Virus record (IMG/VR): IMGVR_UViG_2681813154_000004
Direction: 5' to 3' (one strand)
Source of the DNA: a virus
Lineage: Duplodnaviria > Heunggongvirae > Uroviricota > Caudoviricetes
Length of the DNA: 37,535 bases
The notes beneath the pieces are model-generated. The model was given only the letters and a program-made list of their open reading frames with translations. It was not told where the DNA came from and searched no databases. The position numbers were made by a program, and so were the translations under genes. This document shows, piece by piece, positions 1,715 through 25,868 of the stretch; within the stretch, counting starts at the first letter, position 1; every line of letters begins with the position of its first letter.

Positions 1715-2077
1715 TTAACGACCTGCTGCGCGGAGTTTTCCGTCAGGTTCACCGGCAAGAGTCAGTAACTGTCCCTGGTCTTCCTGCAGAATAGTCAGGC
1801 GACCACCGCGATTGACATACATCGGCGTTTCGGTGGTGTCTTCTTCGGAAATTTTCCCGCGGTTAGTCGGGCGAACATATGAGAGTTTGTGTTTGATTTT
1901 CACTCGGTTCTCATCAAACGGTTCGATTTCCAGGTTGAGCGAGACCTTACCTTTGGTTTTCGTGTTCATCACACCGGAAGCGACTTCACTGAGAACTGCG
2001 CCGATTTTGGTTTCAAATACGCCGCCGTCCAGCTCCCCGATAAATGCCTGCACATCAGTACTGCGTTCGCTAGCCAT
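1715..2077 (-). CDS. yfdP: YfdP-like small prophage protein (120 aa)
   Basis: Internal ATG (MASERSTDVQAF...) with GAGGAG RBS inside track ORF 1715..2395; the upstream extension is Arg-rich junk. Confidence 0.65.
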   Translation of the reverse strand: MASERSTDVQAFIGELDGGVFETKIGAVLSEVASGVMNTKTKGKVSLNLEIEPFDENRVKIKHKLSYVRPTNRGKISEEDTTETPMYVNRGGRLTILQEDQGQLLTLAGEPDGKLRAAGR

Positions 2078-2545
2078 TTTGCTGCTCCTCATCATATCGA
2101 CCCTGCAAGGTCGGTTAGTTTCTCCACAAAACAGAGAAGAACACCTGCGGTGACTGCCGCCCGGATGGATTGGGTTATGAGCCCGTCGTCCGGTGATGCT
2201 CTTCTCTGTTTTGTAAAAAGGACGGTACCAGCCGGAAGCAAGGGTACAAGCTGGTACCGCCAAGACTACACACAGCATAAAGTTGTGGTGCCGGGTGCCT
2301 CCCGGTGCCTGGCGAAGGTTGCACACCAGGCGGGTGGGTATCCACAGAAGGTCGACTGTCAGCCTCAACCTTAACCCGCGTGCGCTGAGCCGCATTCACC
2401 ACAACGCTAAGGATTCTCTCTGGTTGAAAATACTTAGCTGTTATGTGCCTGCTTTTAGCCACATCAGGCGAGGTGGACCTAGTTATTCCCCAACAACAAG
2501 GATTCGGTTAATCTGGTTATCCCCAACAACGCAAAAGGAAAAGAA

Positions 2546-2980
2546 ATGTCCGGTAATATCTATACGCTGTACAAATCCCACTGTGAAAATGTTGGAAAGT
2601 ATCGGGGCATTGAAATCAGTGGGGTAGTGTCATCAGTCGAAATAAGCAAAGTTGAATCAAGGGCAACATTACTTACTCTTTTGGACCTTGTCTTACATGA
2701 GCACCGGAAGAAATTCGGCACTCCCTATAATCAGTTGAATGGGAAAAAGGCTCTGGTTCACCTTATTCTGATGAAGCATCACTGGATGCCAAAACAGATT
2801 AATGAGATGAAATTTGATGAACTTCTTCTTTCAATTCAGGATGAACTCACACTTGATAAAATAAGCGTAACCGCCCAGAAATTTTTAGATTATCGAGACT
2901 GGAGATCACAAATTCATCACTTTGATGATTTTGACGAAAATGAATGGGATCCTAATTTGTCTGCACAATATCTAAAGTAA
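2546..2980 (+). CDS. Hypothetical 144-aa soluble protein, AT-rich accessory gene
   Basis: Long ORF in an AT-rich stretch, ATG with AAGGAAAAG RBS, direct repeats upstream, intrinsic terminator downstream; no family recognised. Confidence 0.6.
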   Translation: MSGNIYTLYKSHCENVGKYRGIEISGVVSSVEISKVESRATLLTLLDLVLHEHRKKFGTPYNQLNGKKALVHLILMKHHWMPKQINEMKFDELLLSIQDELTLDKISVTAQKFLDYRDWRSQIHHFDDFDENEWDPNLSAQYLK

Positions 2981-3158: not shown

Positions 3159-3217
3159 TTCACATCTCCTCAAGTTATCAGTTACTTGTTGATGGGGACC
3201 AGATTGTTAAAGAGCTA

Positions 3218-3240
3218 AGCGTCCTGTAGGGCGCTTTTTT
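3218..3240 (+). terminator. Intrinsic terminator (7-bp stem with one G-U pair, TGTA loop, T6 run)
   Basis: AGCGTCC-TGTA-GGGCGCT followed by TTTTTT. Confidence 0.55.
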
Positions 3241-3319: not shown

Positions 3320-3355
3320 GGGTACATTATGTATCTCAAAGGTACATTGTCAAGT
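3320..3355 (-). promoter_or_regulatory. pL-like leftward promoter with overlapping operator half-sites
   Basis: On the minus strand: TTGACA (3353..3348), 16-bp spacer, CATAAT (3331..3326); GGTACA half-sites at about 3322-3327 and 3341-3346. Confidence 0.5.
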
Positions 3356-3392: not shown

Positions 3393-4067
3393 TTAGGCTT
3401 TGATTTTGTATCTTCTTGGTTTTCCTGAGAAAATCACTGTACCAATTATAGAGCAATTACCGTTGATCTTAATGTAAGGCTCAGGCCAGTTTGGGTTTAA
3501 CGCTTTGAGATAACGCTGTGTCCCATCTTCTATCAACCTTTTGAAGGTGGTTTCGCCTGTATCGTGCATCAATGCAATAACGTCGTCACCGTGGCAGGCA
3601 GGTACTTCAGGATCGACAAAAATCATGTCTCCCGGGCGGTACTCATCAATCATTGAATCACCTATCACCCGCAAGATATAAGTCATTTCCCCACAGGGTA
3701 CAGGGCAGGGATACGTTTCTGCTGTGCTCAAATCAACCTCAGAATATCCAACTTCTTTCCATGCTCCGGCCTGTACCCATGATATGACAGGGACTAATGT
3801 GATTTGTTTATTAGTGATTGAAACATCAGGTTTTTTTGTGATGTTCGTTGTCTGGTGTTCTTGATCGAGCCATCCGACAGGCAGGTCGAAACATTTTTCG
3901 ATGTGTCGTGCCATGCTGTCACCGATATTTTTAGTAGCACCATCTCCCATAAACCTGCTGGTCTGGGTTGGCTCGCGATCAATCATAGTGGCAAAGGAAG
4001 AATTCCCGCCAACACCATCTCTCAGTTTTCTGGCGTTAGACCGCCGGATGTCATGGATTGTTTTCAT
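3393..4067 (-). CDS. cI: CI-type prophage repressor, LexA/S24 peptidase family
   Basis: N-terminal HTH region, Ala-Gly cleavage site (VQAGAW), S24 Ser (GDSM) and Lys (TFKRL); divergent from the cro-like gene. Confidence 0.9.
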   Translation of the reverse strand: MKTIHDIRRSNARKLRDGVGGNSSFATMIDREPTQTSRFMGDGATKNIGDSMARHIEKCFDLPVGWLDQEHQTTNITKKPDVSITNKQITLVPVISWVQAGAWKEVGYSEVDLSTAETYPCPVPCGEMTYILRVIGDSMIDEYRPGDMIFVDPEVPACHGDDVIALMHDTGETTFKRLIEDGTQRYLKALNPNWPEPYIKINGNCSIIGTVIFSGKPRRYKIKA

Positions 4068-4157: not shown

Positions 4158-4358
4158 ATGAAAGCGTATTGGGACTCTTTAACCAAAGAACAGCAGGGCG
4201 AGTTGGCCGGAAAAGTTGGCTCAACACCTGGCTACTTACGGCTGGTTTTCAATGGCTATAAAAAAGCCAGTTTTGTGCTGGCTAAAAAACTTGAGCAATG
4301 CACGTCAGGTGCAATTACGAAATCTGACTTAAGACCGGATATCTATCCGAAAGATTAG
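4158..4358 (+). CDS. cro: Cro-like HTH regulator (66 aa)
   Basis: ATG at 4158 with GGAGGT RBS; MKAYWDSLTKEQQGELAGKVGSTPGYLRLV...; divergent from cI across the operators. Confidence 0.75.
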   Translation: MKAYWDSLTKEQQGELAGKVGSTPGYLRLVFNGYKKASFVLAKKLEQCTSGAITKSDLRPDIYPKD

Positions 4359-23614: not shown

Positions 23615-25094
23615 CACCATTCCGTCGAATACGCTGGTTCCGTTGTTTTATGCGGAAATGGATAACCAGGCGGCGAATACTGCACAGGACAGCGGAGCAT
23701 CGCTGCTGATTGGTCATGCCAATAACGGTGCAGAGATTGTTGCCAACAGTCTGGTGCTGATGCCATCGGCAGACTATGCACGCCAGATTTGTGGTGCGGG
23801 AAGTCAGCTGGCGCGTATGGTCGAGGCTTATCGCCAGACCGACCCGTTTGGTGAACTGTATGTGATTGCCGTTCCTGAATCCACGGGCGCGGCGGCAACA
23901 GTTACGCTGACGGTGACCGGCGCGGCAACCGAAACCGGCACGGTGAATGTTTATGTGGGACGTACCCGCGTGCAGGCACCGGTGACCAACGGCGATAACG
24001 TCGCGACGATTGCCAGCAGTATCCAGGATGCCATCAATGCCGTTCCGCCCCTGCCGTTTACGGCTTCATCTTCGGCAGGCGTGGTCACACTGACCGCGCG
24101 TCATAAGGGGCTTTGCGGGAATGAAATTCCTGTCAGCCTCAATTACTACGGCTTTGGTGGGGGCGAAGTGCTGCCAGCGGGCGTACAGATTGCCGTGGCG
24201 ACGGGTACCGCCGGAACGGGCGCTCCTGTTCTCACCGGCGCGGTGGCTGCAATGGCGGATGAGCCGTTTGATTATATCGGCCTGCCGTTCAACGACACGG
24301 CCTCCGTTAACACGCTGGTGACCGAGATGAACGATACCAGCGGTCGCTGGAGCTATGCGCGTCAGCTGTATGGTCATGTGTACACGGCAAAGATCGGCAC
24401 GCTGTCAGAACTGGTGACCGCAGGTGACCAGTTTAACCAGCAGCACATTACCCTGGCGGGATACGAAAAAGAGACCCAGACGCCTGCCGACGAGCTGGCG
24501 GCAAGCCGTACCGCCCGCGCAGCGGTGTTTATTCGCAACGATCCGGCACGTCCCACGCAGACCGGTGAGCTGGTGGGTATGCTGCCTGCGCCGAAGGGGA
24601 AACGGTTCACGATGACCGAACAACAGACCCTGCTGTCTCATGGCGTGGCAACGGCGTATGTCGAAAGCGGGGTGCTGCGCATTCAGCGTGATGTCACCAC
24701 GTACAGGAAAAACGCTTACGGTGTTGCGGATAACAGCTACCTCGACAGCGAGACGCTGCATACCAGCGCGTATGTACTGCGCAAACTGAAATCCGTCATT
24801 ACCAGTAAGTACGGGCGTCACAAGCTTGCCAGCGACGGTACCCGCTTTGGTCCCGGTCAGGCGATTGTCACCCCGGCGGTGATCAAAGGGGAACTGCTGG
24901 CAACCTACCGTCAGCTTGAGCGTGCGGGGATCGTGGAAAACTACGAACTTTTTAAGCAGTACCTGGTTGTGGAGCGTGATGCCAGCGATCCGAACCGCCT
25001 GAACACGCTGTTCCCGCCTGACTATGTTAACCAGTTGCGTGTCTTTGCCGTGGTTAACCAGTTCCGTCTTCAGTATTCAGAGGAGTCCGCATAA
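23598..25094 (+). CDS. Contractile tail sheath protein (Mu L-like)
   Basis: 498 aa immediately followed by a tube gene; N-terminus MTISFNTIPSN... as in Mu-type sheaths. Confidence 0.85.
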   Translation: MTISFNTIPSNTLVPLFYAEMDNQAANTAQDSGASLLIGHANNGAEIVANSLVLMPSADYARQICGAGSQLARMVEAYRQTDPFGELYVIAVPESTGAAATVTLTVTGAATETGTVNVYVGRTRVQAPVTNGDNVATIASSIQDAINAVPPLPFTASSSAGVVTLTARHKGLCGNEIPVSLNYYGFGGGEVLPAGVQIAVATGTAGTGAPVLTGAVAAMADEPFDYIGLPFNDTASVNTLVTEMNDTSGRWSYARQLYGHVYTAKIGTLSELVTAGDQFNQQHITLAGYEKETQTPADELAASRTARAAVFIRNDPARPTQTGELVGMLPAPKGKRFTMTEQQTLLSHGVATAYVESGVLRIQRDVTTYRKNAYGVADNSYLDSETLHTSAYVLRKLKSVITSKYGRHKLASDGTRFGPGQAIVTPAVIKGELLATYRQLERAGIVENYELFKQYLVVERDASDPNRLNTLFPPDYVNQLRVFAVVNQFRLQYSEESA

Positions 25095-25450
25095 TGGCCC
25101 GTATCGGGGGAACCTGTTATTTCAAAATTGACGGTCAGCAGCTATCGCTGACCGGCGGCATTGAGGTGCCCATGAACAGGACGGTCAATGATGACATCAT
25201 CGGCCTGGACGGTTCAGTGGACCGCAAGGAAACTCACCGTGCGCCTTATGTCAAAGGGACCTTCAAGGTGCCGAAGAATTTTCCGGTGAGCAAAATCACC
25301 TCGTCTGATGAGATGACCATCACTGCCGAGCTGGCGAACGGTCAGGTCTATGTATTGTCGTCCGCCTGGCTGCACGGAGAAGCGAACCATAATGCCGAAG
25401 AAGGCACGGTTGATCTTGAGTTCCACGGTGAAGAAGGGGATTACCAGTAA
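25094..25450 (+). CDS. Tail tube protein (Mu M-like)
   Basis: 118 aa after the sheath; ATG overlaps the sheath stop. Confidence 0.8.
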   Translation: MARIGGTCYFKIDGQQLSLTGGIEVPMNRTVNDDIIGLDGSVDRKETHRAPYVKGTFKVPKNFPVSKITSSDEMTITAELANGQVYVLSSAWLHGEANHNAEEGTVDLEFHGEEGDYQ

Positions 25451-25719
25451 TGAAAGAGCTTGAGTTAAAGAAACCGATTACCGCTCATGGCGAGACACTC
25501 TCCGTACTGGAGTTTGATGAGCCCACCGGGAAAGATGTCCGCGAGCTGGGGTATCCCTACCAGATGAATCAGGATGAGTCCGTCAGACTTCTGGCGCATG
25601 TGGTATCGAAATACATTGTGCGGCTGGCGAAAGTGCCGCAAAGCTCTGTCGACCAGATGTCTCCGGCAGACCTGAATGCAGCGGCGTGGCTTGTGGCTGG
25701 TTTTTTCCTCCAGGCCTGA
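25450..25719 (+). CDS. Tail assembly chaperone, short form
   Basis: 89-aa ORF between tube and tape measure; ends just after a TTTTTTC slippery heptamer. Confidence 0.7.
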   Translation: MKELELKKPITAHGETLSVLEFDEPTGKDVRELGYPYQMNQDESVRLLAHVVSKYIVRLAKVPQSSVDQMSPADLNAAAWLVAGFFLQA

Positions 25720-25868
25720 CGGCTGAATACCTCACTGATCGCTTCTTTGACTGCGCCAGTTACTGGCGCATTAATCCTTTCGAATTGCTGAATATGCCGA
25801 TCAGTGAAATTCCCTTACTGGTCAGTCAGGCAAACAGGATAGAGCAGGAGAAACGCACACATGGCTGA
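25450..25868 (+). CDS. Tail assembly chaperone, -1 frameshift fusion product (slip at T_TTT_TTC, 25701-25707)
   Basis: Frame 0 reads ...GFFLQA*, the -1 frame reads ...WFFPPGLTAEY... to a stop at 25868 that overlaps the tape-measure start. Confidence 0.6.

Follow-up and report, generated by a model that had tools for sequence, protein, structure and literature searches.

STnc100 and PasD are prophage small RNAs described in Salmonella and in enterohaemorrhagic and enteropathogenic Escherichia coli (EHEC and EPEC). In EPEC, PasD1 and PasD2 depend on Hfq, have been confirmed on Northern blots and have many partners and mRNA interactions in RIL-seq, a method that ligates and sequences interacting RNAs (PMC8550237), while in strain EDL933 11 STnc100 copies are transcribed, one of them confirmed by Northern blotting (PMC5331693). 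Recently, Zhu, Shabalina and Storz related PasD to STnc100 and placed most copies near Q, esterase and lysis genes (bioRxiv 10.64898/2026.05.13.724894). Another small RNA, DicF, comes from the dicB operon of the K-12 prophage Qin, a lambdoid operon equivalent to that of the leftward promoter pL, from which it is released by RNase III/RNase E processing and termination (bioRxiv 10.1101/2023.04.14.536235; PMC5069750). Here we describe a gap of about 380 bp in a 37,535-nucleotide (nt) stretch of DNA from a tailed phage (IMG/VR record IMGVR_UViG_2681813154_000004; hereafter the window), in which elements resembling both of these RNAs stand directly upstream of the early gene yfdP.

The gap, placed between yfdP on the minus strand and an ECs1072-family gene on the plus strand, is a conserved non-coding RNA cassette of the leftward early operon. 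It is read on the minus strand and consists of three conserved modules rather than one structure. On sequence grounds, the stretch 2438..2215 (-) is a divergent, unannotated member of the STnc100/PasD prophage small-RNA family. This family is already known; what is new is the subfamily, its unusual position in the operon and its fusion to a DicF-like module. The locus as a whole is best explained as an STnc100/PasD small-RNA gene with a read-through-dependent tRNA-like unit in the pL operon, a reading that we prefer with some reserve. The coordinates of all features are collected in Table 1.

The STnc100/PasD-type unit and its DicF-like end

A scan of the window with Rfam at gathering thresholds gives no match. 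With E-value thresholds, however, the scan proposed in the original prediction aligns STnc100 (RF02076) at full length, over model positions 1-206, to 2435..2212 (43.4 bits, E 2.5e-6 for the whole window). Since this score falls below the gathering threshold, the unit is not annotated in RefSeq. The conserved part of the family corresponds to model positions 31-147, a domain of about 124 nt (2405..2282), which our own covariance model, R1, scores at 79.6 bits; the window holds one copy only. The same model recovers homologous cores in the phages ST64B, phiES15, P1 and SJ46, in K-12 Qin and in seven other genera. Sub-threshold copies of the domain stand upstream of a yfdP homologue in Salmonella phage ST64B, upstream of kil in Cronobacter phage phiES15 and upstream of tciA in the ban operon of P1, SJ46 and RCS47. 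A scan of viral contigs for the P5 block found more than 120 loci with about 100 unique cores, some contigs carrying two or three copies. The idea that a small RNA might be encoded here has thus found a concrete address. The further GC-rich hairpins noticed at the outset also exist, but it had escaped attention that 2282-2438 is the largest and most conserved element of the region.

By eye and by counting, all copies follow one plan: a helix P1 (GGUG/CACC with variable outer pairs), AAU, a hairpin P2 with a UNNGC loop and a bulged base, the strand that pairs with the P4 loop, a variable hairpin, a CGCGG block, and the hairpins P4 and P5. The window copy shares with STnc100/PasD the prophage location, the succession of 5' leader, closed multi-helix core, linker and terminator across the 206-position model, identical GGUGAAU and CACCGGGAGGCACCCGGCACCA blocks, and a pseudoknot through the P4 loop that is common to canonical members. 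It differs in that P2 has been rebuilt by compensation (GCGGC..GC-A-CGC instead of CCCCC..GG-N-GGG), GCG/CGC and GC/GC replacing CCC/GGG and CC/GG, and the outer P1 pairs covary as well. It also lies in the early-left operon, whereas the place of canonical members is the late region, with Q, stx, esterase and lysis genes nearby, and it is followed by the DicF-like 3' module and then by the tRNA-like hairpin. A flanking hairpin abuts P1 on the 5' side, where ST64B, P1/SJ46 and phiES15 each have a different one at the equivalent position (by eye).

The structures had been assigned to the leftward transcript, and compared with 200 dinucleotide-preserving shuffles the minus strand indeed folds far better than expected: 2440..2205 (-) reaches -100.9 kcal/mol (z -5.1, 0/200 shuffles as good) versus z -2.5 for the plus strand of the same stretch, and 2222..2078 (-) reaches -60.6 kcal/mol (z -5.5). 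Covariation points in the same direction. In a MAFFT alignment of 40 non-redundant cores, which is good for P1, P2 and P5 and inconsistent for P4 and the pseudoknot, 91.8% of the positions in the first three helices are paired compared with 38-49% for slid partners, P5 being invariant here because the search pattern fixed it. The covariation of P1 and P2 together is 0.252 versus 0.088 in shuffles, a value reached by 0/500 of them. P4, and all four helices (P1, P2, P4 and P5) together, were examined in an alignment fitted to our own model, which includes divergent copies and leans towards structure: 95.3% of the positions are paired, 16 pairs have changed on both sides and 0/500 shuffles do as well. 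In this alignment P5 covaries too (CCGGG/CCCGG, CCUGG/CCAGG, GGUGG/CCACC). Its last two G-C pairs and its loop are constant while its outer pairs covary, which leaves an invariant GGAGGCA heptamer in 2291-2305 (-) and its homologues. A Shine-Dalgarno-like GGAGG is thus always displayed in P5; the nearest AUG is 19 nt off, too far to be its start codon. Compensatory changes among homologues, on which the original prediction had staked its structures, therefore occur in the core, as they do in the long hairpin discussed below.

Because the MAFFT alignment is inconsistent there, the pseudoknot was assessed sequence by sequence with a partner-swap control. Among 33 representatives, the longest run of complementary bases has a mean of 7.5 with the own partner versus 5.2 with a swapped one, and 0/10000 permutations reach the observed value. 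More than 20 distinct covarying sequence pairs are seen across the core copies, including AAGGUUG/CAACCUU in the window and, elsewhere, CCAGUC/GACUGG, AUCAGC/GCUGGU, CUGGUG/CACCGG, UGGUUAU/AUAACCA and AGACUGACAAA/UUUGUCAGUCU. The pseudoknot is absent from the printed structure line of the Rfam STnc100 model, and the 2026 Pas preprint (bioRxiv 10.64898/2026.05.13.724894) makes no mention of a pseudoknot, DicF or RNase III; both the pseudoknot and the K-12 copy of the core described below appear to be previously undescribed. In the window subfamily, the pseudoknot strand AAGGUUGA can also pair locally with UCGACCUU (2358-2351), and the minimum free energy (MFE) fold prefers this local pairing (2351-2372 (-)). 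The alternative is partly conserved in ST64B and could represent a conformational switch, as far as folding models can suggest one.

An intrinsic terminator lies 34-127 nt (median 54) downstream of the core in 74/98 unique family members, so that core, single-stranded linker and terminator make up the usual family unit. The terminator of the window aligns with that of the STnc100 model and holds the shorter of the two inverted repeats originally reported, both of which a repeat search locates at the stated positions. On the minus strand this repeat (I5, arms 2223-2232 / 2250-2259, 10 nt, 100% complementary, 17-nt loop) grows into a stem of 13 bp (2261..2221), after which come C and UUUUU (2219..2215). 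By itself a 10-bp repeat is expected about once by chance according to our own arithmetic; its significance comes from the U-run and the conservation. The proposal that hairpin and U-run form an intrinsic terminator of the early-left operon therefore holds. In the linker, the 15-mer GCUGUGUGUAGUCUU is kept with at most three mismatches in 15/25 yfdP-leader loci of many genera. It looks like a seed because it is conserved while the terminator hairpin behind it changes in length, and may be a putative seed or a region accessible to RNase E.

The linker and the terminator (2283..2215) resemble DicF: in a global alignment 48/58 DicF nt are identical (z 6.4 versus shuffles), among them UUGGCGGUAYCAG and CCGYCCUUUUU, with the 15-mer aligned to the 5' part of DicF. 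The similarity has its limits, since the DicF model (RF00039) gives the window 19.4 bits (E 0.15), under the gathering score of 48, and K-12 DicF itself 76.7 bits. Moreover, the apical loop by which DicF pairs with ftsZ is not the same in the window, and complementarity of the window module to the ftsZ start (-60..+30) is no better than random (RNAduplex z +0.9 versus shuffles) in a test of such low power that DicF itself only reaches z -1.2. The order also differs: the core precedes the DicF-like part in the window, while in K-12 DicF comes first and the core second. Indeed, the Qin prophage has an unannotated STnc100-type pseudoknotted core between its dicF and dicB genes. Rfam gives this core 34.1 bits and our own model 64.7 bits; its P2 is of the window type, its P5 covaries and it has a pseudoknot of its own (CAGUUAA/UUAACUG). 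The ~137-nt 5' extension of the 190-nt DicF precursor of K-12 was considered as a further copy of the core and discarded (no alignment, weak fold with z -2.0). In the ban operon of P1, which has a core as well, the P1 authors annotated a “dicF-like region”.

Presumed expression in the early-left operon and possible roles of the core

The transcript probably originates at pL, which lies just to the left of the gene for the repressor. The same strand carries, about 100 nt further downstream, a hairpin and then an exact GCTCTTTAACAA at 3204-3215 (-); the motif, GCUCUUUAACAA, is what we take to be the core of the rrn boxA consensus. A boxA with an adjacent hairpin soon after an early promoter, the arrangement of a nut-type site, is thus present at the sequence level. 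A copy of boxA with 2 mismatches, ACUCUUUAACCA, occurs at 4174-4185 (+), some 40 nt after pR. An N-like protein was not recognised in the pL operon, while a Q-like protein is present. The boxA near pL and the copy near pR look like nut- or rrn-type antitermination in a phage lacking a recognisable N. The suggestion that the terminator needs antitermination is plausible, given a repressor-controlled pL (3353..3326) and the boxA/hairpin upstream, and these sites indicate that the terminator is probably read through on induction.

Transcription from pL or another promoter would produce the structured RNA and mostly stop at 2215-2219. Termination would then yield an RNA some 190-225 nt long that carries the terminator/U-tail module usual in Hfq-dependent small RNAs. 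Like the related PasD RNAs, it would probably base-pair via its conserved linker. Because no good promoter lies ahead of the RNA, its 5' end would probably arise by processing of the pL transcript, as for DicF. By analogy with these relatives, the window RNA may be a discrete Hfq-dependent transcript with mRNA partners. After induction, polymerase that has moved past the boxA/hairpin would probably pass the terminator and express yfdPQRST-xis-int. Only this read-through RNA would contain the tRNA-like unit (2214..2126), whose 20-bp stem could then form, taking in the U-run. Through an RNase III-type cut in the long stem, the yfdP message would part from the small RNA and, at the same time, an RNA of about 60-75 nt showing the copy of the initiator-tRNA anticodon arm would be set free.

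Several points weigh against this scheme. The score of 43.4 bits is under the STnc100 gathering score of 47. A sigma-70 promoter is not evident directly ahead of the RNA, and none is convincing between 2440 and 2545, while a convergent gene (2546..2980, +) is interposed between pL and the RNA. A search of the window for complements of the 15-mer, the presumed seed, returned the locus itself only. Cleavage of the long stem by RNase III is suggested only by its length and by analogy. Finally, a base-pairing small RNA needs far less conservation and complexity than the core shows, and the core also occurs in operons without a terminator (K-12 dicF-dicB, the P1 ban operon, ST64B). “Small RNA” may therefore not be its primary role.

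What else could the core do? It may mainly act in cis as a processing and insulation module rather than in trans, an explanation that we consider unlikely. P1 would then be an RNase III site that parts upstream RNA from the early message (yfdP, dicB, kil or tciA), and the compact pseudoknotted fold would protect the new ends. This fits with the terminator-less cores directly upstream of early genes in K-12 Qin (dicF-core-dicB), P1/SJ46 (tciA) and ST64B, and with the lack of an evident promoter ahead of the window copy. It also fits with the 3' end of 72-nt DicF published as an RNase III product (PMC5069750), which by our own count maps to the base of the K-12 core, at about position 1954 of the Qin locus (L264) within the first two bp of the extended P1. 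However, an RNase III site needs neither some 60 invariant nt nor a pseudoknot nor a conserved P5 loop, and P1, with only 9-11 bp, is short for this enzyme. Furthermore, most members (76%) have their own terminator, and relatives accumulate as Hfq-bound RNAs (PMC8550237). Some 100 nt after terminator-less cores (viral loci L012, L027, L029, L042, L045, L079, L082 and others) comes a conserved UCCUGGUAAAUCGGUAGCUCGGAC stretch that resembles the start of a tRNA gene, another link of the core RNA to phage tRNA arrays.

The tRNA-like junction of the yfdP leader

Downstream of the terminator, the preferred scheme of a small-RNA gene with a read-through-dependent unit involves the longer inverted repeat. 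The original prediction had seen in it a put-like element or a small RNA; it proved instead to belong to a separate tRNA-like junction in the yfdP leader. The repeat (I1, arms 2126-2150 / 2190-2214, 25 nt, 84% complementary) is perfect over its outer 15 nt, with 59 nt between the perfect arms, and by our own arithmetic chance would produce about 0.003 perfect inverted repeats of 15 bp within 100 nt in a sequence of 37.5 kb. The perfect arms make up the outer portion of a stem of 20 bp, which closes a three-way junction. At the apex of the long arm, GGG CUCAUAA CCC is identical in 14/14 nt to the anticodon stem-loop of E. coli initiator tRNA-fMet, including the three G-C pairs; the tRNA-fMet sequence was verified in 5426/5426 genomes.

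The resemblance to tRNA-fMet and phage tRNAs covers the features of an anticodon arm (a 7-nt loop with the anticodon CAU, U33, a purine at 37 and the initiator-type three G-C pairs by the loop) as well as the tRNA-like size of the junction, with 59 nt inside the stem. It does not extend to a cloverleaf: there are three arms only, the third loop is CAGUCA, and D arm and T-loop sequence are missing. Moreover, the acceptor-like stem of the window is 20 bp long, lacks a CCA end and lies inside an mRNA leader. ARAGORN finds 0 tRNA or tmRNA genes in the window, the Rfam tRNA model has no match there up to an E-value of 10, and the tRNA-like element matches none of the Rfam families. With its Klebsiella version Rfam returns only chance-level matches, to the downstream terminator, and a literature search on the tRNA-like element found nothing. 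A tRNA-like hairpin with an initiator-tRNA anticodon arm thus seems to be undescribed. Other known structures with comparable traits are the RNase III stems of the lambda N leader and of rRNA precursors, which also consist of a long stem of flanking sequences, here upstream of an early-gene ribosome-binding site. A mismatch in the middle of the stem is conserved in the window element, unlike in those stems, and cleavage of its stem is proposed only from length and analogy.

Two forms of the element emerge from blastn and pattern scans. Form A is always preceded by a terminator with CCUUUUUAC at its end and followed by the ribosome-binding site of a yfdP homologue, and is present in Escherichia, Shigella, Salmonella, Citrobacter, Enterobacter, Kosakonia, Mixta, Leclercia, Klebsiella, Phytobacter, Erwinia and others. 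Form B, from Klebsiella and Raoultella phages, follows tRNA-Asn and tRNA-Arg genes downstream of Q; its acceptor-like stem measures 6 bp, its tail reads ACCA or GCCA, and ARAGORN makes no call for it. The covariation of form A was assessed in 22 sequences from about 15 enterobacterial genera, where 95.7% of the positions are paired compared with 35-50% for slid partners, nine pairs have changed on both sides and 0/500 shuffles reach the observed covariation. The apex was fixed by the search pattern and its invariance is therefore not independent evidence; ST64B and a Klebsiella phage have CUCAUUA in the apex loop. The third arm ranges from 4 bp to about 25 bp among homologues with its base pairs kept, and the mid-stem mismatch is conserved in 18/22 sequences. 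Between the element and the ribosome-binding site lies a small hairpin, found elsewhere as GGCGG-U(U/G)GCAG-CCGCC; its stem differs among genera and its loop U(K)GCAG is kept (by eye).

Does the long tRNA-like hairpin work as an RNA at all? It might be a decayed tRNA gene, or a palindrome at the DNA level, devoid of an RNA function of its own, which we regard as doubtful. Descent from a tRNA gene is plausible, because the ~70-nt form B sits in tRNA-Asn/tRNA-Arg arrays with an acceptor-like stem and a tail, and the plus strand of the hairpin folds well too (z -4.6). Against decay and a palindrome speak double-sided changes and near-complete pairing across about 15 genera, a third arm that varies several-fold in length without losing its pairs, and the fixed position between terminator and yfdP ribosome-binding site. 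In addition, the hairpin contains conserved U-G and G-U pairs that fit the minus-strand RNA only, being A-C mismatches on the other strand.

If the element does act as an RNA, a mini tRNA-like RNA (about 60-75 nt, no D arm) might be released from the read-through transcript and act by mimicry through its tRNA-fMet-type apex; we put forward this idea as a long shot. Such an RNA could act as a decoy target of nucleases that cut the anticodon of initiator tRNA, e.g., VapC/MvpT of Shigella and Salmonella, or as a ligand of methionyl-tRNA synthetase (MetRS) or of the 30S P site that protects or re-programs translation initiation during phage development. Its delivery would take two routes, being cut from the 20-bp stem in yfdP leaders and produced from a tRNA array with an ACCA tail in Klebsiella-type phages.

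Table 1. Features of the cassette, its surroundings and related loci (coordinates refer to the window unless a locus is named)
Feature	Position	Strand	Details	Basis
yfdP	1715..2077	minus	aligned with K-12 yfdP	RefSeq coordinates transferred from locus L001
Shine-Dalgarno and start codon of yfdP	2075..2090	minus	GAGGAG 2090-2085; AUG 2077-2075	sequence
Small hairpin	2098..2113	minus	CGACCU UGCA GGGUCG; between tRNA-like element and ribosome-binding site	fold
tRNA-like three-way junction	2126..2214	minus	20-bp closing stem 2214-2195 with 2145-2126; no D arm	fold, covariation
Long (anticodon-like) arm		minus	CCGGA 2193-2189 with UCCGG 2165-2161	
Apex		minus	GGG 2184-2182, loop CUCAUAA 2181-2175, CCC 2174-2172	
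Third arm		minus	GCGG 2160-2157 with CCGC 2150-2147; loop CAGUCA	
Rho-independent terminator	2215..2261	minus	13-bp stem 2261-2249 with 2233-2221, then C and UUUUU 2219-2215	-23 kcal/mol
Single-stranded linker	2262..2281	minus	UUUAUGCUGUGUGUAGUCUU, holds conserved 15-mer GCUGUGUGUAGUCUU (2276-2262)	unpaired in MFE fold
STnc100/PasD-type structured core	2282..2405	minus	about 124 nt, five helices	RF02076 match, own model, covariation
Core helix P1	2405-2397 with 2290-2282	minus		
Core J1/2		minus	AAU, after P1	
Core hairpin P2	2393-2378	minus	loop UCAGC, bulged A	
Core pseudoknot, 5' strand	2372-2366	minus	AAGGUUG	
Core variable region with hairpin	2345-2334	minus		
Core hairpin P4	2330-2308	minus	loop CAACCUU 2321-2315 pairs with 2372-2366	
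Core hairpin P5	2305-2291	minus	CCGGG AGGCA CCCGG	
5' flanking hairpin	2406..2438	minus	GCUAAG...CUUAGC; abuts P1; STnc100 model positions 1-30	MFE fold, full-length STnc100 alignment
ECs1072-family gene	2546..2980	plus	convergent to the minus-strand RNA	
nutL-like site	3204..3236	minus	hairpin AAGCGCCCUACAGGACGCUU 3236-3217, then perfect boxA GCUCUUUAACAA 3215-3204	one exact match
pL	3326..3353	minus	TTGACA, 16 nt, CATAAT; near-consensus; left of repressor gene; flanked by operator-like palindromes as at pR	
cI-like repressor gene	3393..4067		right of region	
Core in K-12 Qin	L264:1947-2087 (NC_000913.3, about 1649446-1649586)		between dicF and dicB	
Core in C1-controlled ban operon	L002:2405-2534 (P1); L006:1503-1632 (SJ46)		between tRNA-Asn/tRNA-Thr genes (opposite-strand upl, plp) and tciA	
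tRNA-like element, form B	L127:1470-1545 (Klebsiella phage RCIP0034), and about 15 IMG/VR contigs		about 70 nt, loop CUCAUAA, covarying third arm, no D arm	

Remaining explanations, spread and significance

Compared with the small-RNA gene and its read-through-dependent unit, the other functions that could be assigned to the region have poor support. A sensor, i.e., a riboswitch-like or factor-binding aptamer gating the terminator and thereby entry into yfdPQRST-xis-int, is improbable. The layout is that of an aptamer with an expression platform, in that a conserved domain with invariant junction and loop nt precedes a variable 3' segment usually ending in a terminator, and terminated riboswitch leaders have often been catalogued first as small RNAs. 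However, no conserved antiterminator pairing between core and terminator was found, the only possibility being 6 bp long and not conserved (by eye). The distance between the two varies from 34 to 127 nt, 24% of the members have no terminator, the downstream genes are unrelated (esterase, yfdP, kil, dicB, tciA) and the linker itself is conserved like a seed.

Very improbable is the earlier proposal of an RNA that, like put of phage HK022, makes RNA polymerase resistant to termination without the help of a protein. Here too a structured nascent RNA is found in the early operon of a lambdoid phage without a recognised N, and it immediately precedes a strong terminator, past which polymerase must travel for the integration and excision genes to be expressed. 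But HK022 has one put site in each early operon, close to the promoter and about 70 nt long with two stem-loops (PMC9378689), while the window has a single core, about 124 nt long with five helices and about 880 nt from pL. Our own model has no match in HK022 24000-30000, a stretch that may not hold both put sites, and no HK022 record is among the blastn matches listed. On Northern blots (PMC8550237, PMC5331693) the STnc100 relatives accumulate as discrete, terminated species, the opposite of what is expected from an antiterminator just before a terminator, and a conventional boxA/hairpin site is already present after pL.

That the region harbours a real protein-coding gene (a minus-strand open reading frame of 95 or 226 amino acids) can hardly be entertained, despite a frame open from 2395 into yfdP and a RefSeq annotation that consists solely of a frameshifted “hypothetical protein” pseudogene, because the homologues of the hairpin module are 97, 98, 99, 101, 105, 116, 120, 122 and 124 nt long, differences that are not multiples of three and preserve no reading frame, because substitutions in the region are compensatory for RNA helices, and because the predicted peptides are Arg/Pro-rich and of low complexity, all in keeping with the initial view that no convincing frame exists here.

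The window belongs to an SfV/SfIV-type lambdoid phage (its identity over the query is 99.8% with Escherichia phage Kati and 97.8% with Shigella phage SfIV). The K-12 prophage CPS-53, the locus where yfdP got its name, contains neither RNA element, homology beginning about 25 nt before the start codon, and K-12 data for that locus are therefore unhelpful. In other phages the order of core, DicF-like terminator, tRNA-like hairpin, small hairpin and yfdP is old and conserved as a whole, because the tRNA-like element is preceded by divergent cores, recovered with our own covariance model, in another seven genera and even in mEp460. Elsewhere in the window, two direct copies of GTTATYCCCCAACAAC, 33 bp apart (2482-2497 and 2515-2530 (+)), lie just upstream of the ECs1072-family gene and may be a binding site for a regulator or part of the promoter or leader of this gene. 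Near the tail-fibre end of the phage, a sub-threshold Rfam match to IS009 occurs at 33586-33783 (+) (43.2 bits versus a gathering score of 117, E 7e-7).

The small-RNA part of the cassette belongs to a known family. The sequence shows the structures, the relationship to this family, the covariation and the terminator, promoter and boxA motifs; from relatives we infer Hfq dependence, the seed, processing and read-through, and any role of the tRNA-like RNA is conjectural as well. Nevertheless, this is a widespread element that RefSeq presents as a broken hypothetical gene: all or part of the region is present in 2861/5426 complete E. coli genomes, and at least 80% of it in 1324. STnc100, catalogued as a base-pairing small RNA, looks like more than that, namely a pseudoknotted domain of five helices, and its core travels as one module among early operons of both P1-like and lambdoid phages. 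The tRNA-like hairpin, if its proposed role is true, might add a new example of temperate phages mimicking tRNA. Finally, the copy between dicF and dicB in K-12 makes the role of the core, be it a processing signal, the binding of a factor or something else, testable in a standard strain.

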